Of a DNA stretch of 64,000 bases, positions 2,518 through 58,168 are shown in pieces. Each line of letters starts with the position of its first letter. Positions within the stretch are counted from its first letter, which is position 1. Source of the DNA: a virus (lineage: Duplodnaviria > Caudoviricetes); the IMG/VR virus record IMGVR_UViG_3300028805_000061; one strand, given 5' to 3'. The notes beneath the pieces were generated by a model, which saw only the letters and a program-made list of their open reading frames with translations, did no database searches and was not told the origin of the DNA. The position numbers and the translations under genes are program-made.

Positions 2518-3519
2518 ATGAAAATAGATGTTATTATACCTTGTTATAAAGCACATAAGACTTTACCTAGACTACTTGGAAGTGTTCTTTCACAAACAAT
2601 CATAGATGATTTAAAAGTAACATTAGTAAATGATGGAGATGAGAAAGACTATCAACAAATAGTAAAATCTTTTAAAAGTTTTATGGACATTCAAGAATTG
2701 AAATTAGAAAAAAATTCAGGGCCAGGTACAGCAAGAAGATTTGGGTATGAAAATACTTATAATCCACTAGTAATTTGGGCAGATGCAGATGATACATTTG
2801 CAATCTCTTTTGCAATGCAAAGATTAAGAGAAGGATTATTATTAGATGAATCAAATGCAATTTGTATAGGAGATTTTGTAGAAGAAGTAAAAACTGAAGA
2901 CAACTCTTTTAGAATAATGTTACACCAACAAGATACAATATGGATGTTTGGGAAATTATATAAAAGGGAATTTTTAGATAGATATGATTTAAAAATGAAT
3001 GATACAAAAGCTTGTGAAGATTGTGGTTTTAATACAGTTTGTAGAGTAATATTTGATAATCGTATTAAATGTATTAATGATTTAATTTACGTATGGCATT
3101 TAAACAAAAATAGTATTACACATAATTCTAATTATAATTATAATTATGACGTGGGTTTTAAAGGTTATGTAGACAATATGATTTGGGCATTTGAAGAAAT
3201 AGAAAGGATACAAGAATTTTATAACTCTGATCTATTAGAACAAAGAGTTATGTTTGAAAAAGTACAAATTCTAATAAATCTATATGGGAAATATGTTGAA
3301 ACTAAAGAATTATTCCCCGAATATGAAAAACAAAATTGGCAACATTGTAAAAGATATTATAATGAAGTTTATAAAAGTATAAAAGAGAAAGTACCTAGAG
3401 AAATGATTAGTAATATCTGGAGAGAACACATGATTTGGGCTTTATCAGAAAATAGATTTAGTGGATTTATTCCAGCAATATCTATATATCAATTTCTGGA
3501 TTTATTAAAAGAACAATAA
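2518..3519 (+). CDS. Family 2 glycosyltransferase
   Basis: IDVIIPCY, LVNDG, NSGPGTARRFG, DADD (DxD) and CED motifs. Confidence 0.9.
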   Translation: MKIDVIIPCYKAHKTLPRLLGSVLSQTIIDDLKVTLVNDGDEKDYQQIVKSFKSFMDIQELKLEKNSGPGTARRFGYENTYNPLVIWADADDTFAISFAMQRLREGLLLDESNAICIGDFVEEVKTEDNSFRIMLHQQDTIWMFGKLYKREFLDRYDLKMNDTKACEDCGFNTVCRVIFDNRIKCINDLIYVWHLNKNSITHNSNYNYNYDVGFKGYVDNMIWAFEEIERIQEFYNSDLLEQRVMFEKVQILINLYGKYVETKELFPEYEKQNWQHCKRYYNEVYKSIKEKVPREMISNIWREHMIWALSENRFSGFIPAISIYQFLDLLKEQ

Positions 3520-3588: not shown

Positions 3589-4773
3589 TTAGCCAGTGAT
3601 TGCATTATGAAGTATTACATTATTACCTATAAAAGTATGAGTTTTATCAATAGTAAAATCATATACTTCAATTAAATCTGAGTCTAATATTTCTATAGAA
3701 TCTATTTCTAAATATTCATTATTTATTGATAAGCATTTATCTTTAGGTTTTAATTGATATAGAGTAGAATTATTATATAAATTTTCTTTTCTAGTCTTGG
3801 AATTATCATAAGAAGCCCAACCTTTTTCAGTTAAAACAGGATGGCCAGAAGTTAATTCAATAAATTGTTTATTAGTAAAATTAATTCTAATAATATCATT
3901 TTTCAAGTTTTTCATTATTGAAACTACTCTATTATTTTCAAATTCTTTTGTATCTTCATTATAAGTAAATAATAAATCACCTTCAATAACATTTTTAGCC
4001 GATTTGATAGTACCATCACCTAATAAAATCTGAGTATCTCCTGTTATACAACCATAAGCTGCTAAATTAACAGTAATAGTAACATTTGATTTAGCTGCTG
4101 GTATAGTAAATGATTGTGAATAAGTACCTGTAAGAGAGACATTTTGTGAATATTCATTACAACTAATATTGATAGAAGTAATAGCTGTAGCTATTGTATC
4201 AACATTTACAGTTACTGTGGCATTATAGGTAGTACCAGATTTTATAGTATAACTATTAGTAGTATTAGTGTTTATAGTAGTCTGATCACCCTCTAAAGTA
4301 AAGTATATTTGATTTACTGTAGAGTTATTTTTAACATTTAAAACTAGATTCTGTTTCTCCTGTTTATATCCTCCCATAGGATTAAACTTAGTTCTTATCC
4401 CTCCACTACTTTTACTCTTATTTAAACCATAGGCTTCATTCATGGCTTCATAGAATGCATCTGTAGCAGTATATTTTCTATAAGAAGATGCATTAGTAGT
4501 TCCTAATTTACTACTAACACTCATACCCTCAAAACCACTTTTGTAAGGATATACAGTATAGTATACTGTGTTATTAGGACCATAAAAATCTATGGTCTCA
4601 TCCCAAGCCATGCCTGATGTATAATTATAATAGAGTGTATCATTACTTATCATAAATTGACTCTTAGTTAAAGTATATTGATAACCATATTTTGTATCTA
4701 TAAACACCTTTTCAAATAGAATATCTTTAGGTGTAATTTGTATTTGTCTTGTTGTAGGTGTTGATCCTGCCAT
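3589..4773 (-). CDS. Beta-rich protein with C-terminal Hint (intein-like) domain
   Basis: G|CITGDTQILL (block A), ELTSGHPVLT (TxxH), VYDFTI...VILHN followed by AITG-stop; Hint spans 4050..3604. Confidence 0.85.
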   Translation of the reverse strand: MAGSTPTTRQIQITPKDILFEKVFIDTKYGYQYTLTKSQFMISNDTLYYNYTSGMAWDETIDFYGPNNTVYYTVYPYKSGFEGMSVSSKLGTTNASSYRKYTATDAFYEAMNEAYGLNKSKSSGGIRTKFNPMGGYKQEKQNLVLNVKNNSTVNQIYFTLEGDQTTINTNTTNSYTIKSGTTYNATVTVNVDTIATAITSINISCNEYSQNVSLTGTYSQSFTIPAAKSNVTITVNLAAYGCITGDTQILLGDGTIKSAKNVIEGDLLFTYNEDTKEFENNRVVSIMKNLKNDIIRINFTNKQFIELTSGHPVLTEKGWASYDNSKTRKENLYNNSTLYQLKPKDKCLSINNEYLEIDSIEILDSDLIEVYDFTIDKTHTFIGNNVILHNAITG

Positions 4774-4889: not shown

Positions 4890-6965
4890 ATGCTTACTAG
4901 AGACTCCAAAATATCAATAATGACTTCTATTTATCAATTAGTCAATCCAAATACAAATAGAATGGTTTTTGATAAACATCAAGCTAAAAGAGCAATTGAA
5001 CTAGATGAACCTCTAATAGTAAATGATAAACCCTACTATTTATCAGACAATGTAAAACAATGGATAGGAACAACTTGTTTTTATAATGATCCAACCACAA
5101 CTAAAATACTAGAACAAAAATATTGGGAGCTTAATAGTCATCACTATAAGGAAAAACCTCTAACTTTACAAGAATTTATAATGCATCCTGATTATTTAGG
5201 GGGAATTTATGGGGAAAAAATGAATAAATGGTGGTTAGGTTGTTTTAATGTTATCTACCCTACATTATGGCATAAACGATATTGTGAAGTAGTTGCCTCT
5301 TTAGCAATTGGGACAGGTAAAACTACAGGAGCTGCTATATCTTTATCCTATGAAATATATAAATTGATGTGTCTTAAAAATCCAGTAGAATTCTTCCCTA
5401 ATTTAGTTAAAGGTACAAAGATAGTATTTAGTTGTTTTAATGTTTCAAGAGACTTAGCTTATTCAGTAACATTTTCACCTTTTCAAACTATTTTCTCAGA
5501 AAGCCCTTTCTTTAAAGATAGAGTTACTATTCCTGGTAAATCTTCATTAACAGAATATGGTATTTATATTACAGATGATATTAGAATGGATTTAGGTTCT
5601 TTAGATAGAAATGCTTTAGGAAAAGCGATTTTTGGAGCAGTATTAGATGAAGGAAATTTTAATAGGGTAGAAGATCAAACTTTAAAAACTTATTCAACAC
5701 TAAGAACAAGAATTGCTTCTAGGTTTGGTACTACTTATGGGTTTCCTGGTATTCTTTGGTGTGTATCTTCCCCAATGACAGATGCTGATTCTATTAATAC
5801 ATTAATTAGTGGAGCTGATCCCAGTATTACTTATGTATTAGATAATGTTGCACAATGGGAAGTTTGGCCAGATCCTAATAGATATACATTACACAAAAGA
5901 TTCCCAGTATTTATTGGAGATGCAAATAATGATCCAAAAATTTTATATAATGGTAAAAAGAGTATAAATAAATATGATTCAAATAAAATATTATATGTTC
6001 CCCAGAATCTATTTCCTCTATTTAAACATGATTTGTATAAAAACCTTAGAGATTTAGGAGGGGTTAGAGTTGCTGGAGCTTCTAACTTGTTTAGATCAAT
6101 AGAATTACTAAGATCTACCTTTACAGCTCCTATACATTTAAAAACAGAAGTACCTATTACTCTAGACTTCTACAATGCTAAAGATATTTTAAGAAATTAT
6201 GTAAATGAAGACTACTTTAGACATCCTCTCTATCCAGACTGTCCCAGATTTATACATTTAGATCAAGCCGAAGCCGATGGAGGAGACAGGTTTGGTATTG
6301 CAGCTACTTATTGTAAATATGTTGAAAAAGTTTTAGAGAGAGAACACAAAGGTATAGATATATTTGAAGAAGATACACCAGCAATTGAAGCTTATGATAG
6401 ATTTTATTATACTGATTTCTGTTTTGCTATTGAAGCTAAGCCTGGTCAAAAAATACCATTAAGAAAAGTTAGAGATTTTCTTATTTGGCTTAGAGAAATA
6501 GGTTATCCTATAGAATTAATTACTGGAGACCAAGTAAGCCAATCAACTAGAAATGATTTAGAATTAGATGGTTTCAAATGTGAATATCTTTCAGTTGATA
6601 AAAAAGAAATGGGCAGAGTTCCTTGGATTAGTTTTAGAAGTGAAGTAGAAAATTCAAATATAATTTTACCAAAATATCAATTAGCAATAAAAGAAGCTCA
6701 ACATCTTATAGATAATGGAGAAAAGATTGACCACCCAGAACGCTTTGCTAGTACAGGTGAAAAAGGTTCAAAAGATGTGATGGATGGTATAGTTGGTTCT
6801 TATTGGGCTTGTAAAACATCTAAAAAATCAGGGGGAATTATTACTATTGATAAAACTGCTGAAGATCTAAAATTCCAGAGAAGAATAAAACAAATAAGAG
6901 ATAAAATTGCTCCTTCAGCTAAACAATTAGATCCACAAGTACTAATTAATTTTATTAAAAGTTAA
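4890..6965 (+). CDS. terL: Terminase large subunit
   Basis: Walker A AIGTGKTT, Walker B AVLDEG, coupling motif CVSSP, nuclease FIHLD and KIDHP...GSKDVMDG. Confidence 0.85.
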   Translation: MLTRDSKISIMTSIYQLVNPNTNRMVFDKHQAKRAIELDEPLIVNDKPYYLSDNVKQWIGTTCFYNDPTTTKILEQKYWELNSHHYKEKPLTLQEFIMHPDYLGGIYGEKMNKWWLGCFNVIYPTLWHKRYCEVVASLAIGTGKTTGAAISLSYEIYKLMCLKNPVEFFPNLVKGTKIVFSCFNVSRDLAYSVTFSPFQTIFSESPFFKDRVTIPGKSSLTEYGIYITDDIRMDLGSLDRNALGKAIFGAVLDEGNFNRVEDQTLKTYSTLRTRIASRFGTTYGFPGILWCVSSPMTDADSINTLISGADPSITYVLDNVAQWEVWPDPNRYTLHKRFPVFIGDANNDPKILYNGKKSINKYDSNKILYVPQNLFPLFKHDLYKNLRDLGGVRVAGASNLFRSIELLRSTFTAPIHLKTEVPITLDFYNAKDILRNYVNEDYFRHPLYPDCPRFIHLDQAEADGGDRFGIAATYCKYVEKVLEREHKGIDIFEEDTPAIEAYDRFYYTDFCFAIEAKPGQKIPLRKVRDFLIWLREIGYPIELITGDQVSQSTRNDLELDGFKCEYLSVDKKEMGRVPWISFRSEVENSNIILPKYQLAIKEAQHLIDNGEKIDHPERFASTGEKGSKDVMDGIVGSYWACKTSKKSGGIITIDKTAEDLKFQRRIKQIRDKIAPSAKQLDPQVLINFIKS

Positions 6966-15853: not shown

Positions 15854-16459
15854 ATGATTTATATAGAGGGTCCAAGAAATACAGGAAAGACTTATTTGTT
15901 AGATAGGTATTTAAAAGAATTTCCGAACAAATTTTATACTTATAAATTCCCTTATTATAGTTTATATGAAAAATTAGAATTAAATAAAGAATTGAATGCT
16001 GGAACATATTTTAGTTTTGGTAAAGATTTAGACTTATTAGCTTTAGCTAAAGCTAATTTATTACCTGAAAATCTTATTTTAGATAGAGGTTTTACTAGTT
16101 CTATAATATTTGCTATAATGTTTAGACAAGCTAAACCTGAGAGTATGTCTAATTTTATTGATACAATATCTACTATTTATAAAGATATAAAAATTGATAT
16201 ATTATATATTGAACCTAATATAACTGAAAGAGATAGATTGGGTTTATCTGAAAATAGAGAAAAAGATAAAGAAGAACTTCCTTCTTTAAATTTAGTAGAT
16301 AATATTATTACTGATAAAGTATTTGATTTTAACTATAATTGGGTGTTTCAACAATTAGCAAATTGCCCTAATATAGCTATTCATAGATTTACTAATAATT
16401 TTGATGAAGATTCTGTTACTAGATTTACTAGCTTAATGAATGTTTTATATAAAAATTAA
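15854..16459 (+). CDS. Deoxynucleoside-monophosphate (thymidylate-type) kinase
   Basis: N-terminal P-loop IYIEGPRNTGKT and LILDRGFTS motif. Confidence 0.8.
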   Translation: MIYIEGPRNTGKTYLLDRYLKEFPNKFYTYKFPYYSLYEKLELNKELNAGTYFSFGKDLDLLALAKANLLPENLILDRGFTSSIIFAIMFRQAKPESMSNFIDTISTIYKDIKIDILYIEPNITERDRLGLSENREKDKEELPSLNLVDNIITDKVFDFNYNWVFQQLANCPNIAIHRFTNNFDEDSVTRFTSLMNVLYKN

Positions 16460-21393: not shown

Positions 21394-22056
21394 ATGAATA
21401 TACTTAACTATGAAGCACAAGAAGTAGATTCTTTAACTGAAATAATAAATAAACAAAAAGTTATAATGTTTGCATTTGAGCCTAATTTAGAACAAAAAGC
21501 AAAAGAATTTGATATAGATATTTATGAAGATCAAATGCTACTTAAAGAGTTTCTTCTAGAAAGAGTAGTTGAAGAAATAACTGAAGCTTTTGCAGCATTT
21601 AGAGCTAAACATTATGAACATTATTTAGAAGAGATTGTAGATGTATTTAATTTTATTATTGAAACACATATACTTTTAAGAAATGTAGTAGAGAATGATT
21701 CAACTCTTCTAAAAGATTTAGCTAATTCTTTTAGCTTATATGAAAAACACATTAAGTTACCTGATTATTTATATCAAGATTTTTGCCCTCCAGAATCCCA
21801 AAGAAGAGCACTTATAAAAAGTGATTTATTTAATATTATTCAACTAATTGGAGAAATTACTAATTTATTAAAACAACGTCCTTGGAGAGAAAGTCAATAT
21901 CCAGTAGATTTACTTACATTTAAGAAAAAATGGTTGGAATTTATTCAAATTTTCTTTGATACTCTAATTCATCAAGGAATTGGTTATGATATTTTATCAG
22001 GTATTTGGTCTAAGAAATATCAAGTAAATAAGTTCCGTATAGAAAGTAATTATTAA
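21394..22056 (+). CDS. All-alpha dNTP pyrophosphatase (dimeric dUTPase/dCTPase, MazG-like fold)
   Basis: EEITEA...LEEIVDVFNF acidic motifs, KQRPWR and KYQVNKFR end motif. Confidence 0.75.
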   Translation: MNILNYEAQEVDSLTEIINKQKVIMFAFEPNLEQKAKEFDIDIYEDQMLLKEFLLERVVEEITEAFAAFRAKHYEHYLEEIVDVFNFIIETHILLRNVVENDSTLLKDLANSFSLYEKHIKLPDYLYQDFCPPESQRRALIKSDLFNIIQLIGEITNLLKQRPWRESQYPVDLLTFKKKWLEFIQIFFDTLIHQGIGYDILSGIWSKKYQVNKFRIESNY

Positions 22057-26042: not shown

Positions 26043-26774
26043 GTGACTAGAATATTTAGAGATTGTGAACAATATATAAAAGAAATAGATAGAGAACTAT
26101 TTCAATCTGGTATAACAGTACCAGTAAATCACTATCAGAATAAACAATTAGAAGGTGAAAATAAGAATACCAAAGAAATAATTGGAGTTAGTGCTTGTAT
26201 TTCTAATCCACTTAGAAAACGTAAAGAGATGTTAGAACATATTTTTAAAGATGATGCAGAAAGAATAGAAAAATACTGTATTCAAGAATTTAAAGATAGA
26301 ATTTCTCCTATACCATTAAATCCTGGTGAATCTTATAAAATTAGAAAAGATGTTTGGCAAAAATTTATGGTGGAAGATGAAACTAAATTTGATTATACAT
26401 ATAGTGAAAGACTATATGATAAATGGCAATATATAATCGCTACTTTAAAGGAAGATAAACATTCAAGACAAGCTTTAATGGAAGTATTTAAACCAGATGA
26501 TTTAGAAAAACATGGAGGAGATACTAGAATACCCTGTAGTATATGTTATCAATATTTAATTAGGAATAATCAATTACATTGTATTTATACAATGAGAAGT
26601 AATGATTATTTCGGTCATCATCCTATAGATATATGGTTAGCAGCAGAAAGTATTTTATATTTACAAGAAGAGCTTGTTAAAGTTTACCCAAAATTACAAA
26701 CCGGTAAGTTATACTATCAAGCTGGTTCACTTCATGCTTATCAATGGGATTTAAAAGAAAGGTTATTATTTTAA
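26043..26774 (+). CDS. Thymidylate-synthase homologue, dCMP-hydroxymethylase-like
   Basis: YTYSERL, SRQA, catalytic IPC, MRSND-x7-D and GSLHAY. Confidence 0.8.
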   Translation: MTRIFRDCEQYIKEIDRELFQSGITVPVNHYQNKQLEGENKNTKEIIGVSACISNPLRKRKEMLEHIFKDDAERIEKYCIQEFKDRISPIPLNPGESYKIRKDVWQKFMVEDETKFDYTYSERLYDKWQYIIATLKEDKHSRQALMEVFKPDDLEKHGGDTRIPCSICYQYLIRNNQLHCIYTMRSNDYFGHHPIDIWLAAESILYLQEELVKVYPKLQTGKLYYQAGSLHAYQWDLKERLLF

Positions 26775-26789
26775 TTAAGGAATTGTTAA

Positions 26790-26990
26790 ATGGCTAGAGT
26801 TTTAATTAGTATGCCTGAAAAATTCTTATCTAATATAGATAAAGTAGCAAATAAAGAAAATAGAAGCAGATCAGAATTAATTAGAGAAGCTTTAAGAACT
26901 TATATAAATAAACAAAATATAGTTAATAAATATATGTCTAATTCAATTGCTGAACAAAATGCTTCTAAATTAGAGGATATGTTACAATAA
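26790..26990 (+). CDS. CopG/ribbon-helix-helix regulator
   Basis: RVLISMP...ID..A..ENRSRSELIREALRTY. Confidence 0.9.
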   Translation: MARVLISMPEKFLSNIDKVANKENRSRSELIREALRTYINKQNIVNKYMSNSIAEQNASKLEDMLQ

Positions 26991-27775: not shown

Positions 27776-28012
27776 ATGTCAACTCAACAAGAAGAAAATT
27801 TAATTGCCTTATTAGATGGCTATGTTGAAAAAGGTGGGCACCATTTGAATGTAAATGTTTTTAATAAAGAAACATTAATTGATGCTCAACAACATCCAGA
27901 AAAATATCCACAATTAACTATTAGAGTTTCTGGTTATGCTGTTAATTTTGTAAAACTAACTAAAGAACAACAAGATGATGTAATTAATAGAACTTTTCAT
28001 AAAGGTTTATAA
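27776..28012 (+). CDS. grcA: Autonomous glycyl radical cofactor (stand-alone PFL C-terminal domain)
   Basis: GGHHLNVNV...[19 protein letters not shown]...[11 protein letters not shown]. Confidence 0.92.
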
Positions 28013-32676: not shown

Positions 32677-34197
32677 ATGAAAAACAAAAATAAGTCTTTG
32701 TATAAACGATTAAGTGAATTAAGTCTAATAGTTTCTGGTAATTTGCCAGAAGTAGACATAGAATATCTTAAAGAGATTAATGAAATAATTCCAAAAACAA
32801 GAGTAGCAGTATATTCAAACATTTTTGAAGATGCAATAAAGTATTACAAAACTCAAAAGAAATTACCAGATTTTGATTATGTGAATATGCATTTTTCTGA
32901 ATTAATGGAAGATTTAAAAGATGAAGAACCTGCTTGGCATGAAAGCTTTGCTTTGGAATATCTTTCATTATTACAAAAAGATGAATTATTACAAGAAATT
33001 GCATTAGCTCAAGCAGAAGATGATTTAGAAGGAATTGATCAAATCATTTCAAGTAATGAGAAGATATTTAATGATGATATTTCAGGTAAATTACCAACTT
33101 TTGATGAATTGTTTGAAGCCTATGAGAACATTAAAAATTCTAAACCTCCTTTAAAATTTGGTATAAGAGAGTTGGATAAAATGTATAATGGTTTATGTTA
33201 TGGAACATGTAATATTTTAGCCGCTCCCCCTGGTAAATTCAAAACCACTACTGCAAATAGTGTGGCTTATGTTAATTTAAAAGATGGTAAAAAGGTTTTA
33301 TATATTACTTTAGAAGATTCATGGGATGTGATTTACTTTAATATAGCTACAAGAGAAAGTTATGAGCAAGATAGATTACTTAATGCTTCAACTATTAAAA
33401 TTGGTAGATTAGATGAAGAAGATGAACAAACATTAAAAGAAATAATTGAAGATTGTAAAAAGAGATATAACAATAATTTTAGAGTAGCTTGTCAACAATG
33501 CTGGGGAGATTTTAGTCCAGCCGGATTACTTAGACTTTTAAGAAAAGCTAAAAAAGAGATGAATGGACTAGATTTGGTTGTTTTAGATCATGCTAGTTTA
33601 ATGAAGTTTTATAAAGTAAAAGGAGTAAGCGATCCTAAAGAAATAATTAATTTTTATATCAGGTATTTAACAAATTTATCTATTTCTTTTGAAGATAAGT
33701 TTGCTTTATTAGTTGCTATGCAAACAAATAGAGACGGTATAAAAGAATTAGAATCTGGTAAAACTGGTTCATTAACAAATTTAGCAGAAGCAAATGAAGC
33801 AGAAAGATCTGCTTCTACAGTAACATTAATTTATTCTGGTCCTAATGCAGTAGAAAGCAATATTATCAATTTTTACCCAAAGAAAAATAGAAGAGGTTAT
33901 CTATCTGCTAAACCCATTATTAGTTTTATTGAACCTGGAGCTTATTTTGTAGGAGAAAGAGCTATTGAGGGAGATGTTTCTTTAGATGATTTAATGGATG
34001 ACATGGACTCGAAAGAAGATCGAGAAAGTCAAGACAGTATAGAAGATAATGAGATAAAAGGTTTTGCTCACCCACAAAAAATTACTAAGACAGTAGTTAA
34101 AAAGAAAAGATTTAAGACAGAAGATGAAGAAGAATCAAATAATGATAAGCCAAAACCAACTTTAATGAGAAGAAAAATAAAGAAAGTTATTAGATAA
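32677..34197 (+). CDS. dnaB: DnaB-like replicative helicase
   Basis: FGIRELD..YNG, AAPPGKFKTT, YITLED, VVLDH, AMQTNR and KKNRRG. Confidence 0.88.
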   Translation: MKNKNKSLYKRLSELSLIVSGNLPEVDIEYLKEINEIIPKTRVAVYSNIFEDAIKYYKTQKKLPDFDYVNMHFSELMEDLKDEEPAWHESFALEYLSLLQKDELLQEIALAQAEDDLEGIDQIISSNEKIFNDDISGKLPTFDELFEAYENIKNSKPPLKFGIRELDKMYNGLCYGTCNILAAPPGKFKTTTANSVAYVNLKDGKKVLYITLEDSWDVIYFNIATRESYEQDRLLNASTIKIGRLDEEDEQTLKEIIEDCKKRYNNNFRVACQQCWGDFSPAGLLRLLRKAKKEMNGLDLVVLDHASLMKFYKVKGVSDPKEIINFYIRYLTNLSISFEDKFALLVAMQTNRDGIKELESGKTGSLTNLAEANEAERSASTVTLIYSGPNAVESNIINFYPKKNRRGYLSAKPIISFIEPGAYFVGERAIEGDVSLDDLMDDMDSKEDRESQDSIEDNEIKGFAHPQKITKTVVKKKRFKTEDEEESNNDKPKPTLMRRKIKKVIR

Positions 34198-35552
34198 TGT
34201 CAAGTATATGGCAAAGCAAAGTAGTAGCAATAAATCCTTTGAAAGAAAATAATGAAATTACTGGTTATGCTATTGTAAGTAAAGAACATAAACATTTTTA
34301 TGGATCAAATATAGATTTAGATCATATTTTAAAAGATGCAAAAGGAAAAATTTATTTTGATGCTCCCAGCGAGAGATATAATTTTAGAGCATTGTATTAT
34401 CAGTTAAAGCCAAATATAAAATTTCAAAATATTTCAGATATTGTAAAGCAAGAATATTATACTACTAATGTAAAAGATATCTTATATTTTGTAAAAAGAG
34501 AAGGAGCAAAACAAGCTGTTATTGAAGCTTGTTTTATGTTAGAGTTTTTCAAGAAAAATTACAAAGAGCGAAATGATAAAATCTATCATTTAGATAAAAA
34601 TCTTTTGAATTTGACAAGTAATTATGAGAGTGAAATTTCTATTAATAAAATTCAATTAAGAACTGATTTAAGTTTATACCAAAAGAAAAGATGGGATACA
34701 GAAAGGAAATTGTTTGAAAAAACAGGTTACCCTATTCAAAATCAATTTTCTATTGATAATCCAAAATTAAGAGAAAGTTCTAGTGTTGTAAAAGTTTTAG
34801 ATCAAATTAAAGACTATAAAAGTAAGGTAAACTATTTAGAAAAATATTTAGATCTTCCTAAAATAGTATTAAACTTTGATATTACTGCTACTGCTACAGG
34901 AAGAATACTCTGTAGAGATAAACAAAATAATATAGGATTATTTGCTCCAGATAAAAACTATAGATATTTATTTCCAGCTAAGAAAGAATTTATTTTTATT
35001 TCAGCTGATTACAAGAGACAAGAAGCTTGTATATTAGCTAAAGTAAGTAATGATAAACAATTAGAACAAGATATACAAGAAGAAGATTTTTATTCTAGAT
35101 TAGCAAGATGGACAATAAGAGAAACTAAAAAACAAATAGGTAAAACTTTATTTTATGCAGTAATTTATGGAGCAAAATCCCAAACAGTTGCAGAAGAATT
35201 AAAGATAGATATTGATACAATAAAGCAAGCAATTAGAAAAATTAAAAATCGATATAAGAGCCTTTCCAGTTGGTTAGAAGATTTTGATGAAAATACTAAT
35301 TATTTTGGTAGACCATTACATAATAATACAGTTAATGCTTATGTACAAAGTACTGCTGCTGATATATTAAAAGATAGATTAATTGCTACTTTTAATTATA
35401 GTCCAGCTTTAATTTTGTCTGATAACATAATTTATCAAATTAAAGATGTAGATATTCAGAGAAAAATTGAAAATATCAAGTTATTATTACAGAAAACTAG
35501 CCCTTTTAATTTGAAAGTTGATATAAAAACTAGTTATAATTTATCTTTTTAA
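34197..35552 (+). CDS. Minimal/divergent family A DNA polymerase
   Basis: TATGRI, motif A ADYKRQE, motif B KQIGKTLFYAVIYG, NAYVQSTAADILK, motif C LSDN. Confidence 0.8.
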   Translation: MSSIWQSKVVAINPLKENNEITGYAIVSKEHKHFYGSNIDLDHILKDAKGKIYFDAPSERYNFRALYYQLKPNIKFQNISDIVKQEYYTTNVKDILYFVKREGAKQAVIEACFMLEFFKKNYKERNDKIYHLDKNLLNLTSNYESEISINKIQLRTDLSLYQKKRWDTERKLFEKTGYPIQNQFSIDNPKLRESSSVVKVLDQIKDYKSKVNYLEKYLDLPKIVLNFDITATATGRILCRDKQNNIGLFAPDKNYRYLFPAKKEFIFISADYKRQEACILAKVSNDKQLEQDIQEEDFYSRLARWTIRETKKQIGKTLFYAVIYGAKSQTVAEELKIDIDTIKQAIRKIKNRYKSLSSWLEDFDENTNYFGRPLHNNTVNAYVQSTAADILKDRLIATFNYSPALILSDNIIYQIKDVDIQRKIENIKLLLQKTSPFNLKVDIKTSYNLSF

Positions 35553-43384: not shown

Positions 43385-44119
43385 ATGATTATTACTTTAT
43401 TTGATAGATACAAAGAGAGTGATTTAATAAATAAAATGTGGGTAGCTGCTAGAACTTGTTATAGTGCAAATAATATAAGAGATTTAAAGATTGAAGCTGA
43501 AAATCTTACTATTGAAGAAAAATTAGACTTAATTAAAAAAGTATTTAAGTCTGGTCACTTATCAATTGCAGAACATATTTCTTTTACTTTTGGGATTTCA
43601 GGAATTAGTAGATCTTGTTCTCATCAATTAGTAAGAAATAGAATAGCCTCTTATTCTCAAGCTTCACAAAGATACATTAATTTTTCTGATAAAAGTTTTG
43701 ATTTTGTAACTCCTCCAGAAATAGATAAAAATCCAGAATTATTAGAAGAGTATATTAATTTTATGAATTTATGTAAAGAAAAATATGATAAATTTGTTAA
43801 AGCTGGTATAAAAGCTGAGGATGCTAGATTTGTTTTACCCAATGCAGCTTGTACTAATATATCTATGACTATGAATTTAAGAGAATTAATGCACGTTATG
43901 GGATTAAGACTTTGTTCAAGAGCTCAGTGGGAAATTAGACAAGTATTTCAAGAAATGCAAAAACAAACAATTGAACAATATCCTTTTCTAAAAGAATATT
44001 TACAACCTAATTGTGAACAATTGGGATTCTGCCCTGAAGGTCATGGGGCTTGTGGTAGAAAACCTAAGAAAAGTGAATTAATAGAATTATATAAAGAATC
44101 ACAAAAAGAAGATAAATAG
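43385..44119 (+). CDS. thyX: FAD-dependent thymidylate synthase
   Basis: GHLSIAEH, SRSCSHQLVRNR-x7-SQRY, EDARFVLP and RAQWEIR. Confidence 0.92.
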   Translation: MIITLFDRYKESDLINKMWVAARTCYSANNIRDLKIEAENLTIEEKLDLIKKVFKSGHLSIAEHISFTFGISGISRSCSHQLVRNRIASYSQASQRYINFSDKSFDFVTPPEIDKNPELLEEYINFMNLCKEKYDKFVKAGIKAEDARFVLPNAACTNISMTMNLRELMHVMGLRLCSRAQWEIRQVFQEMQKQTIEQYPFLKEYLQPNCEQLGFCPEGHGACGRKPKKSELIELYKESQKEDK

Positions 44120-44181
44120 GTCAAATTAATTTGAAACATAATAATAACTATATTAAATATAGTTATTATTTTGGAGGAAAA

Positions 44182-44769
44182 ATGACATTAGAAAGCACTA
44201 TATTACAATACCCTAAACCAAAACAGAGATATTTTGATGAAATGTATATGCAAATGGCAGTAAATATGGCTAAACTTTCCACTTGTGCAAGGGTTCAAGT
44301 TGGTGCTGTTTTAGTAATAGATGACAGGCCTTTGCTAAGTGGTTATAATGGATCACCAAGAGGACACCAGCATTGTATTGATATATTTCAAGAAAAATAT
44401 GAAAAATACTGTAGATCAAATAAAGAACCCATTAGTATATTTACTTTTAAAGATTTTATGAGTTTACCAGAAATAAAAGATGAACATGGTAAATTTTCTA
44501 GATTACATGAAGTACATGCTGAAATAAATATTATAGGTCAAGCTGCTTATAAGGGATTATCTACAAAAGGAGGTAAACTTTATGTAACATGTAGTCCTTG
44601 TAATGATTGTTGTAAATCTATATTAACAGCTGGAATAAAAGAAGTTGTATTTAAAGATTTATATGATAGAGAAACAGAAGGCTTAGAAATATTAGCTCAA
44701 TCAAAAGTATTGATAAGACAATTAATAATAGAGGATAGAGAAGTTAAGGAGAATTTACAATGGCAATAA
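44182..44769 (+). CDS. dCMP deaminase
   Basis: STC.R..VGAV, GYNG, HAE and SPCNDC; ggagg RBS favours start 44182. Confidence 0.9.
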   Translation: MTLESTILQYPKPKQRYFDEMYMQMAVNMAKLSTCARVQVGAVLVIDDRPLLSGYNGSPRGHQHCIDIFQEKYEKYCRSNKEPISIFTFKDFMSLPEIKDEHGKFSRLHEVHAEINIIGQAAYKGLSTKGGKLYVTCSPCNDCCKSILTAGIKEVVFKDLYDRETEGLEILAQSKVLIRQLIIEDREVKENLQWQ

Positions 44770-51542: not shown

Positions 51543-52763
51543 ATGGGTATAAAAACAAAATTGGAACCTCTTGGTGGATTCCAAAAAATTGCTGGTGGTG
51601 TAGAACCAAAAGTTGCTTGTTCAGATACTACAACTTGGTACTTAACTAACAACGGTAAACTTTATGGTTGCGGCTCTAATAGTAGCGGTCAGCAAAGTTC
51701 AAGTGATACATCAAATGTTACAACCTTTACCCAAAGAGCAACAAATGTAGCACAAGTTGCTTGCTCAGGTAATACAACTTGGTACTTAACTAACGATGGA
51801 AAACTTTATGGTTGCGGCTCTAATAACTACGGTCAGCAAGGTAGAGGAACATCAACACAGTGGGACATTACATTTTTTACTCAAAGAGCAACAAATGTAG
51901 CACAGATTGCTTGCTTAAGGGAAAAAACATGGTATCTAACTAATGACGGTAAACTCTATGGTTGCGGAAGAAATTATTACGGGGAACAAGGTTCAGGTAA
52001 TACAACAGAGGTTGCAAGTTTTACCCAAAGAGCAACAAATGTAGCACAGATTGCTTGTTTAGATAATACAACTTGGTATCTAACTAACGATGGTAAACTC
52101 TATGGTTGTGGATATGGTGGTAAGGGTGGGCAAGGTTCAGGAAATACCGATAATGTTCTAACTTTTACCCAAAGAGCAACAAATGTAGCGCAGATTGCTT
52201 GCTCAAGTTCTACAGCATGGTATGTAACAAATGATGGTAAACTCTATGGTTGCGGCTCTAATAGTGGCGGTCAGCAAGGTTCAGGAAATACAGATAATGT
52301 TCTAACCTTTACCCAAAGAGCAACGAATGTAGCACAGATTGCTTGCTCAAGTTCTACAACTTGGTACTTAACTAACGATGGTAAACTCTATGGTTGTGGA
52401 TGGGATGACTACGGTCAACAAGGTTCAGGTAATACAACGAATGTTACAACTTTTACCCAAAGAGCAAATAACGTAGCAAAAGTTATTTGTTCAGATGAGA
52501 CAACATGGTATTTAACTAATGATGGTAGACTCTATGGTTGCGGTCATAATTACTTCAAGCAACAAGGTGGAGATGGTGTATATTCTTCTGTTAAAACCTT
52601 TACCCGAAGAGCAAGTAATGTAGCGCAGGTTGCTTGCTCAGATGATACAACTTGGTACTTAACTAATAATGATGAACTCTATGGTTGTGGCCGGGGTTAC
52701 GAGGGTCAACAAGGTAATGGCAGTACTAGCGGTAATGTTACAACCTTCACAAAGCGAAAGTAA
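51543..52763 (+). CDS. RCC1/BLIP-II-like beta-propeller, putative receptor-binding protein
   Basis: Eight tandem ~48-aa (~144-bp) repeats ACS..TTWYLTNDGKLYGCGxNxxGQQG. Confidence 0.85.
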   Translation: MGIKTKLEPLGGFQKIAGGVEPKVACSDTTTWYLTNNGKLYGCGSNSSGQQSSSDTSNVTTFTQRATNVAQVACSGNTTWYLTNDGKLYGCGSNNYGQQGRGTSTQWDITFFTQRATNVAQIACLREKTWYLTNDGKLYGCGRNYYGEQGSGNTTEVASFTQRATNVAQIACLDNTTWYLTNDGKLYGCGYGGKGGQGSGNTDNVLTFTQRATNVAQIACSSSTAWYVTNDGKLYGCGSNSGGQQGSGNTDNVLTFTQRATNVAQIACSSSTTWYLTNDGKLYGCGWDDYGQQGSGNTTNVTTFTQRANNVAKVICSDETTWYLTNDGRLYGCGHNYFKQQGGDGVYSSVKTFTRRASNVAQVACSDDTTWYLTNNDELYGCGRGYEGQQGNGSTSGNVTTFTKRK

Positions 52764-55885: not shown

Positions 55886-58168
55886 ATGACAATAGAATTA
55901 ACAGAAGAACAAGAAGTTGATATACAAGTAGAAACTGATAAACAAATAGAAGAAACTAAAGAATATCAAGATCTAAGAGCTCAAATAGAAGCAGAAGTAA
56001 GAGAGAAGATTAAAGCTGAAGAAGCTGAAAAAAGAAAGAAAAGATCTAAGAGTAAAACCAAACAGCCTAAAATAACACCTTCCTGGGATGATGTTTGGCA
56101 GGAAGCTATATGGACAAGAACCTATGATCATATAGAAAAGGACCCAAATTATGATTCTTATTTAGACCAATTAGAGAAAACAAATCAATTATATGTAGAT
56201 TTTGAAACACATACTCCTTTAGCTGTTAGACCAGTAGAAGTAATGGAGACTATTGCTGAAGAGAAAAATTGGAAAAACTGGAAAGGTGTTCTGAATAATA
56301 TAAGAATTGAAGTTACTGGTTATAATAATAAAGGAGAGAGTGTAAGTAATAAGGGTTACCCTCTTGATCCAAAAAGAGGTAAAATTAGATTGGTTCAATT
56401 AGGTGACAAAAAAGATACATTTATTTTTGATAGATATAAATGTACACCACAACAGTGGGAGAGAATAGGTAAACTATTTAAAAATAAATTTTTTATAGGT
56501 CAAAATATTTTATTTGAATGTAGATATATTTGTGAAGAATGGGAACCCAATTATTTACCTTTTCATTGTTATGATACAATGACTGTAGAAAAATTAATAA
56601 TGTGTTCTAAATTAAGTTTTTTAGGAGCAACTAGATTTGACTTACAGTCTATAGCAGAAAGAAGAGCTGGTATTTATATAGCTAAAGGTTATGGTCATTC
56701 AGACTGGGGAAATCCAGATTTAAGTGAAGAACAATACAAATATGCAGCAGAAGATATTGATATATTAAGACCTATAGTAAAAGCTCAATTGCCAGAACTT
56801 AAAAATATGGGTAATAATTTTGTAAGAATAGAAAGAGATCCAGTAAAGGATTTATCTTTCTTATCACCATTAAGAAAATTACATTTAATAGCTGCAATAG
56901 AATGTGATGTAATTCCTTGTTTTGCTAGAATGATGTGGAAAGGTATTCCAGTAAATACAGCAGTATTAGAAAAAGAAATAGCAGAAAGAGCAACTAAAGT
57001 AGAAGAATACAATAATAAATGGGGATTTAATTTAAAAAGTCCAAAACAGACTTTACCAGTATTAATAAATGACTATCACTTAAATATATCAGCTACCAAT
57101 GCTGATGAATTAGCACCTTATTATGAAACTAATGAGTTGGTTAAAGATATTATTGATTCTAATTCAATAGCTACAATAAAGGGTTTAATAGAAGGGTTTT
57201 TAGCTGCTTCACAAGAATATGGAGATGATAGAGTTCATCCAAAATTTACAGTATATCAAGCTTATTCAGGAAGAACTGCTTGTAAAGACCCAAATGTTCA
57301 ACAAATACCTAGAAAAATAAAACCAGTATGGATGATGCCCCCAGAAGGTAAAACTATTATTAATTTAGACTATCCAGCTATAGAGATGAGGATAATGGCT
57401 GCTTATTGTAAAGAAAGAAAAATGTTAGATGCATTTTTACATGGTAAAGATCTCCACAAGATAACAGCTGCTGCAGTAAATAAAATCCCTATAGAAGAAG
57501 TTACTAAAGATCAACGAAAGAAAGCTAAGGCCTGCAACTTTGGATTTTTGTACGGTTGCTCATCTAAGAGGTTTAAACAAACAGCCATGACTAAATATAA
57601 TATTGATTATAGTATTGAAGAAGCTACTCAAATTCGTGAAGCTTTCTTTAAAGGATATCCTGATTTAGATAGACACGTAAGAAGAATGTTTAAATTATTT
57701 CCTTATGGTAGAAAAGATATAAGATATTTAGTTAAAACTTTCTTAGGTAGAAAAATGATGGTAGATGGTTCTGGTAACGCATTGAATTTTCCTATTCAAG
57801 GATCAGGAGCTGATGCTGCAAAATTAGCAATAATAATGCTTTATAGAACTATTAGAACTTATAAAGATGGTAAATATTCTAAGGGTCAAATAGAGCCAAT
57901 AAGTTTCATACATGATGAAATTTTTCTTGAATCTAATATTGAATGTATGAAATTTGCTACTAGAATACTTAAAAAATCACTAGAATCAGCTATGAATTAT
58001 ATAATGATAGACTTTTTTCCAGTAACAGTAGAACCTGAATTAAGTGATTTTAAAGGTGAAAGTTGGAAAAAGAAATATACTGAAGAAGATATACAACAAT
58101 TTATAGAAGAGTTAGGATCTAGTTCTTATACTATTAAAGGTAAAGTTAATTCTATTAAGCCAGAATAG
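55886..58168 (+). CDS. polA: Family A DNA polymerase with 3'-5' exonuclease
   Basis: VDFET, YDTM, YAAED; SGRTAC..PNVQQIP, DYPAIEMR, RKKAKACNFGFLYG, NFPIQGSGAD and IHDE. Confidence 0.95.
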   Translation: MTIELTEEQEVDIQVETDKQIEETKEYQDLRAQIEAEVREKIKAEEAEKRKKRSKSKTKQPKITPSWDDVWQEAIWTRTYDHIEKDPNYDSYLDQLEKTNQLYVDFETHTPLAVRPVEVMETIAEEKNWKNWKGVLNNIRIEVTGYNNKGESVSNKGYPLDPKRGKIRLVQLGDKKDTFIFDRYKCTPQQWERIGKLFKNKFFIGQNILFECRYICEEWEPNYLPFHCYDTMTVEKLIMCSKLSFLGATRFDLQSIAERRAGIYIAKGYGHSDWGNPDLSEEQYKYAAEDIDILRPIVKAQLPELKNMGNNFVRIERDPVKDLSFLSPLRKLHLIAAIECDVIPCFARMMWKGIPVNTAVLEKEIAERATKVEEYNNKWGFNLKSPKQTLPVLINDYHLNISATNADELAPYYETNELVKDIIDSNSIATIKGLIEGFLAASQEYGDDRVHPKFTVYQAYSGRTACKDPNVQQIPRKIKPVWMMPPEGKTIINLDYPAIEMRIMAAYCKERKMLDAFLHGKDLHKITAAAVNKIPIEEVTKDQRKKAKACNFGFLYGCSSKRFKQTAMTKYNIDYSIEEATQIREAFFKGYPDLDRHVRRMFKLFPYGRKDIRYLVKTFLGRKMMVDGSGNALNFPIQGSGADAAKLAIIMLYRTIRTYKDGKYSKGQIEPISFIHDEIFLESNIECMKFATRILKKSLESAMNYIMIDFFPVTVEPELSDFKGESWKKKYTEEDIQQFIEELGSSSYTIKGKVNSIKPE

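Follow-up and report, generated by a model that had tools for sequence, protein, structure and literature searches.

A predicted dCMP-modifying ThyA-fold enzyme and its all-alpha pyrophosphatase partner in a sheep-gut phage

By replacing the cytosine of their DNA, phages evade many defences based on restriction or CRISPR, and the enzymes concerned serve as tools for epigenetic sequencing. The strategy itself is known, and it has already been published, from MetaGPA screens, that homologues of thymidylate synthase (ThyA) with Asp at position 177 (Escherichia coli numbering) mark cytosine-modifying phages. Such a homologue is encoded by the open reading frame (ORF) 26043-26774 of a 64,000-nucleotide stretch of Caudoviricetes DNA (IMG/VR record IMGVR_UViG_3300028805_000061), the whole of which is called the window here. 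The question raised by this locus is which nucleotide the enzyme acts upon and what becomes of the product. We consider it probable that the enzyme is a folate-dependent C5 one-carbon transferase specific for deoxycytidine monophosphate (dCMP) which, with the pyrophosphatase encoded by ORF 21394, would form a pre-replicative module for cytosine replacement. Judged by homology and gene linkage, the grounds for every pathway step proposed below, the phage very probably swaps the cytosine of its DNA for a 5-modified cytosine.

Fold and active site of the ThyA homologue

26043-26774, + strand: ThyA-fold enzyme of the Arg143/His173/Asp177 clade, predicted to be a folate-dependent one-carbon transferase acting on C5 of dCMP (PF00303, AlphaFold2 model, VIA-align, hhalign)
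26526-26537, + strand: Arg162-Ile-Pro-Cys165, the catalytic Cys with an Arg three residues upstream, where E. coli has L143 and T4 has D145 (alignments)
26592-26630, + strand: MRSNDYFGHHPID, residues 184-196, comprising Arg185 (E. coli R166), Ser186 (S167), Asp188 (D169), His192 (G173) and Asp196 (N177, D179 in T4) (alignments)

The ORF starts with GTG, 8 nt downstream of an AAGGAG ribosome-binding site, lies within a tightly packed block of early genes on the same strand and encodes 243 residues. It matches PF00303 (1.3e-11, 44.6 bits against a cut-off of 24.3) and the thymidylate synthase family phrog_160 (5e-21). The best sequence matches are, however, to MilA, the cytidine monophosphate (CMP) 5-hydroxymethylase of mildiomycin biosynthesis (4.7e-9; PDB 5b6d and 5jnh), and to T4 dCMP hydroxymethylase (gp42; 4.8e-6), both ahead of any thymidylate synthase. 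In structure, too, modifiers of cytosine nucleotides take the lead. An AlphaFold2 model built on 105 relatives (predicted local distance difference test score, pLDDT, 96.5; predicted template modelling score 0.93) was aligned with VIA-align to MilA with Z 23.0 (root-mean-square deviation 2.0 Å over 217 residues), to the flavin-dependent dCMP hydroxylase HY126 AfhB with Z 22.6, to E. coli thymidylate synthase with Z 20.2 over 207 residues and to T4 dCMP hydroxymethylase with Z 19.6, and Foldseek ranks the fold matches as VIA-align does. Residues 9-243 superpose on E. coli ThyA 1-221, so that the protein is a ThyA core minus the last 43 residues: it has no C-terminal tail (E. coli residues 222-264) and ends 10 residues past the His-x-Tyr motif.

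Active-site residues were assigned from profile-profile alignments made with hhalign to E. coli ThyA (98.6%) and T4 gp42 (98.5%), a 71-sequence alignment and a 105-sequence alignment reaching down to 28% identity. The correspondences, given as E. coli residue, then residue of the window protein, then state in its clade, are as follows.

C146 (T4 gp42 C148), Cys165: invariant
R166 (T4 R168) and S167, Arg185 and Ser186: kept
D169 (T4 D171), Asp188: kept, Asp in 57 of 58 clade members sampled
E58, Glu82: kept
W80, Trp105: kept
Y94, Tyr120: kept
R126, Arg142: kept
H207 and Y209, His231 and Tyr233: kept
N177 (T4 gp42 D179), Asp196: invariant
H147, Ser166: Ser or Thr
L143, Arg162: invariant
G173, His192: 57 of 58
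R127, Gln143: mostly Gln
R21: not conserved

In the 105-sequence alignment R162, C165, R185 and D196 are invariant while H192 and D188 are at least 90% conserved, and the pattern R-x-x-D-x7-D is present in 246 of 270 retrieved relatives. The codon of Asp196 is GAT, at 26628-26630, and an HMMER alignment free of gaps likewise pairs this residue with an Asp of MilA. An earlier reading of the locus, made without database searches (the sequence-only reading), had located MRSNDYFGHHPID at 26592-26630 and placed an Asp at the position of ThyA Asn177. The placement is exact, hhalign and the MilA alignment agreeing on it. The description of an MRSND context was also correct, the selecting Asp being the last residue of MRSNDYFGHHPID and the Asp of MRSND itself the universally conserved D169. 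A similar motif, RSNDYYGHFPID, has been flagged in another genome.

The significance of this residue is well documented. The substitution N177D turns thymidylate synthase toward dCMP (PMC8670742; PMC13326640), T4 gp42 loses dCMP binding on the reverse change D179N (PMC6400193), and cytosine-modified metaviromic contigs are enriched in Asp177 enzymes (PMC8670742). On the alignments, then, Asp occupies the position of ORF 26043-26774 that selects between deoxyuridine monophosphate (dUMP) and dCMP, as in dCMP-specific ThyA-fold enzymes. The marks of a canonical dUMP-methylating thymidylate synthase, Asn at position 177 and a tail (222-264) closing over the cofactor, are both absent, Asp196 standing at 177. 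As to the sugar, the substitutions A176S and K133R in MilA move its preference from CMP to dCMP (PMC6400193). The HMMER alignment to MilA puts Ser186 and Arg142, the deoxy-type residues, where MilA has Ala176 and Lys133, and the substrate should therefore be dCMP rather than CMP. A CMP hydroxymethylase of the MilA type, to be recognized by Lys133 and Ala176, was rejected on the same residues.

The protein has 368 close relatives, and 2638 cluster representatives are retrieved at E <= 0.001. Most of the clade is metagenomic, and phages of Clostridium perfringens and Streptomyces also belong to it. Arg three residues before the catalytic Cys (position 143 in E. coli) and His at E. coli G173 are unique to it among the enzymes compared. 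In E. coli ThyA the two positions belong to a set of 12 residues lying no more than 6 Å from C5 (PMC13326640), which argues that the clade has a distinct catalytic pocket. A large clade with two C5-adjacent residues unlike those of every known-product enzyme compared is new.

The pyrophosphatase partner and related loci

21394-22056, + strand: all-alpha NTP pyrophosphatase of the dimeric-dUTPase / T4 gp56 family, predicted dCTPase and possibly also dUTPase (PHROG, VIA-align, linkage)

The second component of the putative module is matched by phrog_12184, nucleotide pyrophosphohydrolase, at 2.7e-9. When its model (pLDDT 82) is compared by VIA-align with three dimeric dUTPases, the Z values are 14.0, 10.2 and 9.0, whereas the helical background does not exceed 7.8; Foldseek also places dimeric dUTPases at the top, but none at E <= 0.001. 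In Pfam the ORF matches nothing at 0.01, a relaxed limit giving PRA-PH alone (E 0.026, 15.4 bits, below cut-off), and a search of its sequence profile against the PDB gave nothing significant. Relatives are more informative: the homologue in locus L016 scores 25.3 bits with PF08761 (cut-off 22.9), and T4 gp56 about 25 bits. Comparison by hhalign of the ORF 21394 profile with T4 gp56 is weak, with a probability of 24% and the C-terminus alone covered, and in that region the ending K-x-x-x-N-x-x-R-x-x-x-x-Y is common to the two families. The acidic metal-binding motifs expected of the family, E-E-x-x-E and E-E-x-x-D, are invariant among relatives of ORF 21394. As modelled, the protein has the all-alpha dimeric-dUTPase fold of the T4 gp56 family.

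Linkage was assessed in IMG/VR, in 74 loci encoding a ThyA-fold relative, which collapse to 13 lineages at <80% identity. The pyrophosphatase is encoded in 71 of the loci and in every one of the lineages, 0.5-4.7 kb from the ThyA-fold gene. The sequence-only reading had proposed an all-alpha dNTPase at 21394, and both its fold and its conserved partnership with the ThyA-fold enzyme bear this out. A pairing of this kind, like that of gp56 and gp42 and found in all the lineages examined, is new. Since a separate trimeric dUTPase is also present in 9 of the 13, the all-alpha enzyme is arguably not merely a dUTPase. Its obvious role, by analogy with gp56 and given the linkage to a dCMP enzyme and the separate trimeric dUTPase, would be conversion of deoxycytidine triphosphate (dCTP) to dCMP.

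The pairing is also visible in isolated phages of 50-80 kb. The proteins annotated as thymidylate synthase in the C. perfringens phages CPD4, CP3, Clo-PEP-1 and CPAS-15 and in Streptomyces phage KimJongPhill belong to the clade (31% and 27% identity) and share the Arg143/His173/Asp177 combination and the short C-terminus. In CPD4 a homologue of ORF 21394, annotated as hypothetical, lies two genes upstream of the ThyA-fold gene. This protein, CPD4_73 (L001:18536-19180), matches the pyrophosphatase profile at 5.9e-17, and CPD4_75, the 'thymidylate synthase', carries Arg143, His173 and Asp177; both public annotations are therefore probably too generic. KimJongPhill has a MazG-annotated gene at the same place which does not match the family profile of ORF 21394 and so may be a different all-alpha pyrophosphatase. 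We found no report in the literature on the DNA chemistry of the four C. perfringens phages or of KimJongPhill.

Other genes recur beside the pair. An asparagine-synthetase-like amidotransferase of about 450 residues (GATase plus PF00733, 1.7e-33; phrog_16728), whose best solved relative is human asparagine synthetase, is encoded at L016:8647-10011, L017:6048-7481, L018:11566-12891 and L022:11527-12846 and in 59 further loci. It shares an operon with the pyrophosphatase and ThyA-fold genes in 63 of the 74 loci, which represent 5 of the 13 lineages. A literature search for asparagine-synthetase homologues in phage DNA modification found no paper. A C5 cytosine DNA methyltransferase (PF00145, 9.3e-22) adjoins the ThyA-fold gene in 5 of 13 lineages (L016:10739-11929, L017:8475-9686, L022:8788-10017), and a dCMP-deaminase-family gene is near it in 8 of 13. 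Profile searches of the window found no asparagine-synthetase-like protein, trimeric dUTPase or Dcm-like methyltransferase.

Product chemistry and competing readings

Three sequence signatures have been linked to the product of such enzymes, and none settles the matter here. In hydroxymethylases the third residue ahead of the Cys is an Asp or Glu, proposed to activate the water, and T4 D145N is inactive (PMC6400193; PMC13326640). Asp is found there in all the known or annotated hydroxymethylases compared, namely T4 gp42, MilA, SPO1 gp29 and the enzymes of phiW-14, phage G (gp319), Lactobacillus phage ATCCB and LuckyBarnes. The window protein has the clade-invariant Arg162 instead. The T4-type signature further includes the hydroxyl of a Ser or Thr close to the catalytic Tyr, as in Ser94-x-Tyr96 (PMC6400193). 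The corresponding motif is Tyr118-Thr119-Tyr120, with Thr or Ser conserved at 119, yet hhalign pairs Tyr118 with Ser94. The flavin-dependent 5-hydroxy-dCMP synthases carry D169N (PMC13326640). Asp188 is retained, so this flavin-hydroxylase signature is absent and assignment as a 5-hydroxy-dCMP synthase was rejected; the equivalents of Glu58, Trp80 and Tyr94, which we count as evidence on the cofactor, are all kept. Membership of the class of the Xp12 dCMP methylase was likewise rejected, as the C-terminal region is missing and Xp12 branches outside the clade. The rules on positions 143, 169 and 177 thus yield no clear call for the clade: its active site is unlike every characterized type, and the product is therefore unreadable from sequence. 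No product assignment for the clade was found in the literature, in a comparison that excluded the sequences assayed in a 2024 preprint.

The sequence-only reading had suggested a phylogeny with gp42-type enzymes. A maximum-likelihood tree unites the window protein with 57 metagenomic relatives, CPD4 and KimJongPhill in one clade, which has a support of 98 in the Shimodaira-Hasegawa-like approximate likelihood ratio test. The clade is placed beside T4 gp42 and RB69 gp48 (support 90) and the Xp12 methylase joins the true synthases, although branches are long and the clade itself is the sole trustworthy grouping.

Comparison with characterized systems gives a similarly mixed picture. With T4 gp42 and gp56 the window shares a tail-less ThyA fold, the catalytic Cys, Asp at N177 and at 169, the Glu58 and Tyr94 equivalents, the MRSND motif, the pairing with an all-alpha pyrophosphatase of PF08761 type and the coexistence of a separate thymidylate synthase and dCMP deaminase. 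In contrast to T4, identity to gp42 is about 20%, Arg replaces Asp145, His replaces Gly at 173 and Gln the second Arg of the SRR motif; there is no adjacent glucosyltransferase, and PolA and ThyX stand in place of the B-family polymerase and Td. Glycosyltransferases are immediately adjacent to the Asp143 enzymes of LuckyBarnes, ATCCB and T4. MilA, the best match in both sequence and fold and with Asp at N177, differs in having Asp three residues before the Cys, an extra C-terminal domain, and the ribonucleotide-favouring Lys133 and Ala176 at the positions taken in the window protein by the deoxy-type Arg142 and Ser186. The 5-hydroxy-dCMP synthases RB69 gp48, DLP3 gp80 and HY126 AfhB are of similar length, have a short C-terminus and Asp at N177 and occupy a neighbouring tree branch, whereas the window protein lacks their D169N and keeps the Glu58 and Trp80 equivalents that RB69 gp48 does not have. 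Xp12 dCMP methylase shares Asp at N177, a non-acidic residue at 143 (Asn in Xp12) and a deaminase-family gene in the same genome, but retains the full C-terminal region of thymidylate synthase and Gly173 and groups with the true synthases. At the level of gene content, contigs with modified cytosine have been recognized in MetaGPA screens by the joint presence of a thymidylate synthase homologue, a deaminase, PolA and a pyrophosphatase of PRA-PH type, a rule validated statistically and biochemically, and the window offers a well-supported case of this known kind.

The pathway proposed here draws on four further genes.

15854-16459, + strand: P-loop protein that may act as a dNMP kinase on the modified nucleotide, a weak assignment (phrog_761 thymidylate kinase, 1e-8)
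43385-44119, + strand: ThyX, flavin-dependent thymidylate synthase (PF02511, 2.6e-63)
44131-44769, + strand: dCMP deaminase family protein, adjoining ThyX (PF00383, 2e-22; phrog_174, 1.6e-49)
55886-58168, + strand: family A DNA polymerase carrying a 3'-5' exonuclease domain, presumed to incorporate the modified nucleotide (PF00476, 5.3e-58; PF01612, 7e-13)

In the first step the pyrophosphatase would convert dCTP and dCDP to dCMP, removing the canonical triphosphate and feeding the next reaction. Cys165 would then attack C6 of dCMP, held and protonated by Asp196, and the methylene of CH2-H4folate would move to C5 with the participation of Glu82, Tyr120, Trp105 and Asp188. The resulting exocyclic methylene intermediate may capture water to give 5-hydroxymethyl-dCMP, with His192 and Arg162 in the role of T4 Asp145; alternatively it may be reduced to 5-methyl-dCMP or capture another nucleophile. 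A kinase, possibly that at 15854, and host NDP kinase would form the triphosphate, to be incorporated by PolA, while ThyX and dCMP deaminase would provide deoxythymidine monophosphate (dTMP) separately. The last two enzymes, both reported in the sequence-only reading, lie side by side at 43385-44769; ORF 26043-26774 is therefore redundant for dTMP, as that reading had maintained. It had also credited the phage with its own PolA, and the full-length gene with a 3'-5' exonuclease is indeed present. A second family A polymerase gene, at 34197-35552 on the + strand, encodes 451 residues with a partial polymerase domain and no exonuclease domain.

Among the possible products we give 5-hydroxymethyl-dCMP about an even chance, 5-methyl-dCMP a distinctly smaller one and any other product a somewhat smaller one again. 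In thymidylate synthase a C-terminal segment closes the active site for hydride transfer. Capture of water is favoured because the open, tail-less architecture is that of hydroxymethylases and hydroxylases, and because hydride transfer requires a pterin pose with which a side chain at 173 should interfere.

Several observations weigh against a hydroxymethylated, cytosine-replaced genome. The invariant Arg three residues before the Cys departs from the hydroxymethylase signature, and a residue at 143 that is not acidic would, on the usual published criterion, point to a methyl product. Of the four arginines with which thymidylate synthase binds phosphate, two (R21 and R127) are not conserved. 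Neither dihydrofolate reductase (DHFR) nor a glycosyltransferase nor any other gene decorating 5-hydroxymethylcytosine (5hmC) is linked to the ThyA-fold enzyme: of the 47 families found up to 8 kb from the gene in 12 lineages, the 25 listed include no glycosyltransferase, and DHFR, carbamoyltransferase, TET-like dioxygenase and a second glycosyltransferase are all missing from the 78 window ORFs scanned with Pfam. The C5 DNA methyltransferase next door in 5 of 13 lineages is puzzling if every C5 is already substituted. Some palindromes containing C and G are under-represented in the window, CATATG being absent where a Markov model expects 12 and CATG occurring at 0.55 of expectation, which full protective modification would not obviously predict; avoidance is mild and mixed overall, other short palindromes being mostly near expectation. 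Finally, modified cytosine in the virion DNA is something we infer for a phage known only from sheep-gut metagenomes.

Some of these points lead directly to the idea of a dCMP methylase, in which reductive transfer would yield 5-methyl-dCMP and the phage DNA would have 5-methylcytosine (5mC) for C, like that of Xanthomonas phage Xp12. Asp177 with a non-acidic 143 is the literature's prediction of 5-methyl-deoxycytidine, Xp12 itself having Asn at 143, and in published assays five of seven tested deaminase-linked metaviromic homologues gave 5-methyl-dCMP. A dCMP-deaminase-family gene is nearby in 8 of 13 lineages, as in published 5mC modules, and the clade is linked to no glycosyltransferase or other decorating enzyme. 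Nevertheless, the E. coli 222-264 segment used for hydride-transfer closure is missing here and present in the Xp12 enzyme, His takes the place of Gly173, against which the pterin of thymidylate synthase packs, the clade stands apart from Xp12 in the tree and closer to T4 gp42 and RB69 gp48, and Pfam scans show no DHFR in the window. We regard this outcome as unlikely. If dCMP is methylated, it might instead be deaminated afterwards, supplying dTMP or dTTP for a genome of 74% A+T whose DNA remains canonical. Deaminases preferring 5-methyl-deoxycytidine nucleotides, and giving deoxythymidine products, are documented in published work beside such enzymes, and the window has both a deaminase-family gene and a very low G+C content. 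But ThyX immediately upstream of the deaminase suggests the ordinary route from dCMP through dUMP to dTMP, the deaminase-bearing phages of the published cases also have 5mC in their DNA, and a conserved partner resembling a dCTPase is in keeping with dCTP being excluded, so that a role in thymidylate supply appears barely plausible.

The two clade-specific residues invite a different thought, that a nucleophile other than water or hydride traps the methylene and so yields a 5-(X-methyl)-dCMP of a new kind, the co-substrate being bound by Arg162 and His192. Arg143 and His173 are invariant and, among the enzymes compared, unique to the clade, both are within the 6 Å shell around C5 mentioned above, and an amidotransferase resembling asparagine synthetase shares the operon in 5 of 13 lineages. 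Yet this is an extrapolation from two residues, the window has no such amidotransferase and the literature searched offers no precedent, making it very improbable for the phage in hand. The broader proposition that the clade represents a fourth chemistry among ThyA-fold cytosine modifiers, widespread in phages of gut and soil, is improbable too; its product would be neither 5mC, 5hmC nor 5-hydroxycytosine and might be, for example, a 5-(X-methyl)cytosine formed with a new nucleophile and elaborated by the amidotransferase in many lineages. Replacement of cytosine by way of 5-hydroxymethyl-dCMP remains our preferred reading. The clade includes isolated, culturable phages of C. perfringens and Streptomyces. 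The product of any one member would extend or correct the rules on positions 143, 169 and 177 and reveal the base used by a common group of gut phages.

Remaining genes and genomic setting

2518-3519, + strand: soluble GT-A glycosyltransferase of family 2 (GT2) with a DxD motif, pathway membership doubtful (PF00535, 3e-17; phrog_841, GtrB-like, 2.2e-8)

Two of the genes that the sequence-only reading had assigned to the pathway fared less well. The first is the glycosyltransferase at 2518, whose GT2 identity stands and whose role in the pathway is not supported: it is GtrB-like, 23 kb from the ThyA-fold gene and not a conserved neighbour in related loci. Homologues are found in none of the three complete relatives' genomes searched, and in two incomplete ones they are far from the ThyA-fold gene. 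Its nearest solved relatives are, distantly, chondroitin synthase, GalT1, TarS and TarP. TarP-related GT-A enzymes glycosylate 5hmC DNA (bioRxiv 2023.12.21.572611), and a role on DNA is possible by analogy with these TarP-like relatives. The gene is flanked, on the opposite strand, by an HNH endonuclease (1844-2422, - strand) and a protein with a C-terminal Hint/intein-type domain (3589-4773, - strand), and a weak terminase-like ORF, 4890-6965, is close to this cluster. The second is the proposed dNMP kinase at 15854. It is a P-loop protein, with a GPRNTGKT Walker A sequence and a DRG motif, but its assignment as a kinase is weak. In its favour, homologues adjoin the pyrophosphatase in L016 and L017, the former matching dNK (PF01712) at 4.7e-4, below the cut-off.

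The gene content of the window, as judged by Pfam scans, is concerned with replication, recombination and nucleotide metabolism. Pfam recognizes no capsid or tail gene, so the window is a piece of a larger phage genome. A near-identical sequence is present in the sheep-gut metagenomes of two studies. A megablast search with the 12 kb surrounding the ThyA-fold gene gave zero matches among 50,697 phage records, which therefore hold no close sequenced relative.

Three further proteins deserve mention. Starting 16 nt past the stop codon of the ThyA-fold gene, 26790-26990 (+ strand) encodes 66 residues resembling a ribbon-helix-helix protein of CopG type; the RHH_1 match (1.9e-09) is one among 37 pooled ORFs and was assigned to this one by the look of its sequence. 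About 1 kb downstream of the ThyA-fold gene, 27776-28012 (+ strand) encodes a 78-residue stand-alone glycyl-radical domain, by appearance a spare part of the GrcA/YfiD type. The PF01228 match (2.4e-23) is the sole one of its kind in the pooled scan, and the ORF was chosen by its RVSGYAVNF motif. The G+C content of the window ranges from 25 to 33%, and its sole raised segment (33% against about 26%) contains 51543-52763 (+ strand), which encodes a β-propeller protein of 406 residues with RCC1 repeats (PF25390, 4.3e-98).

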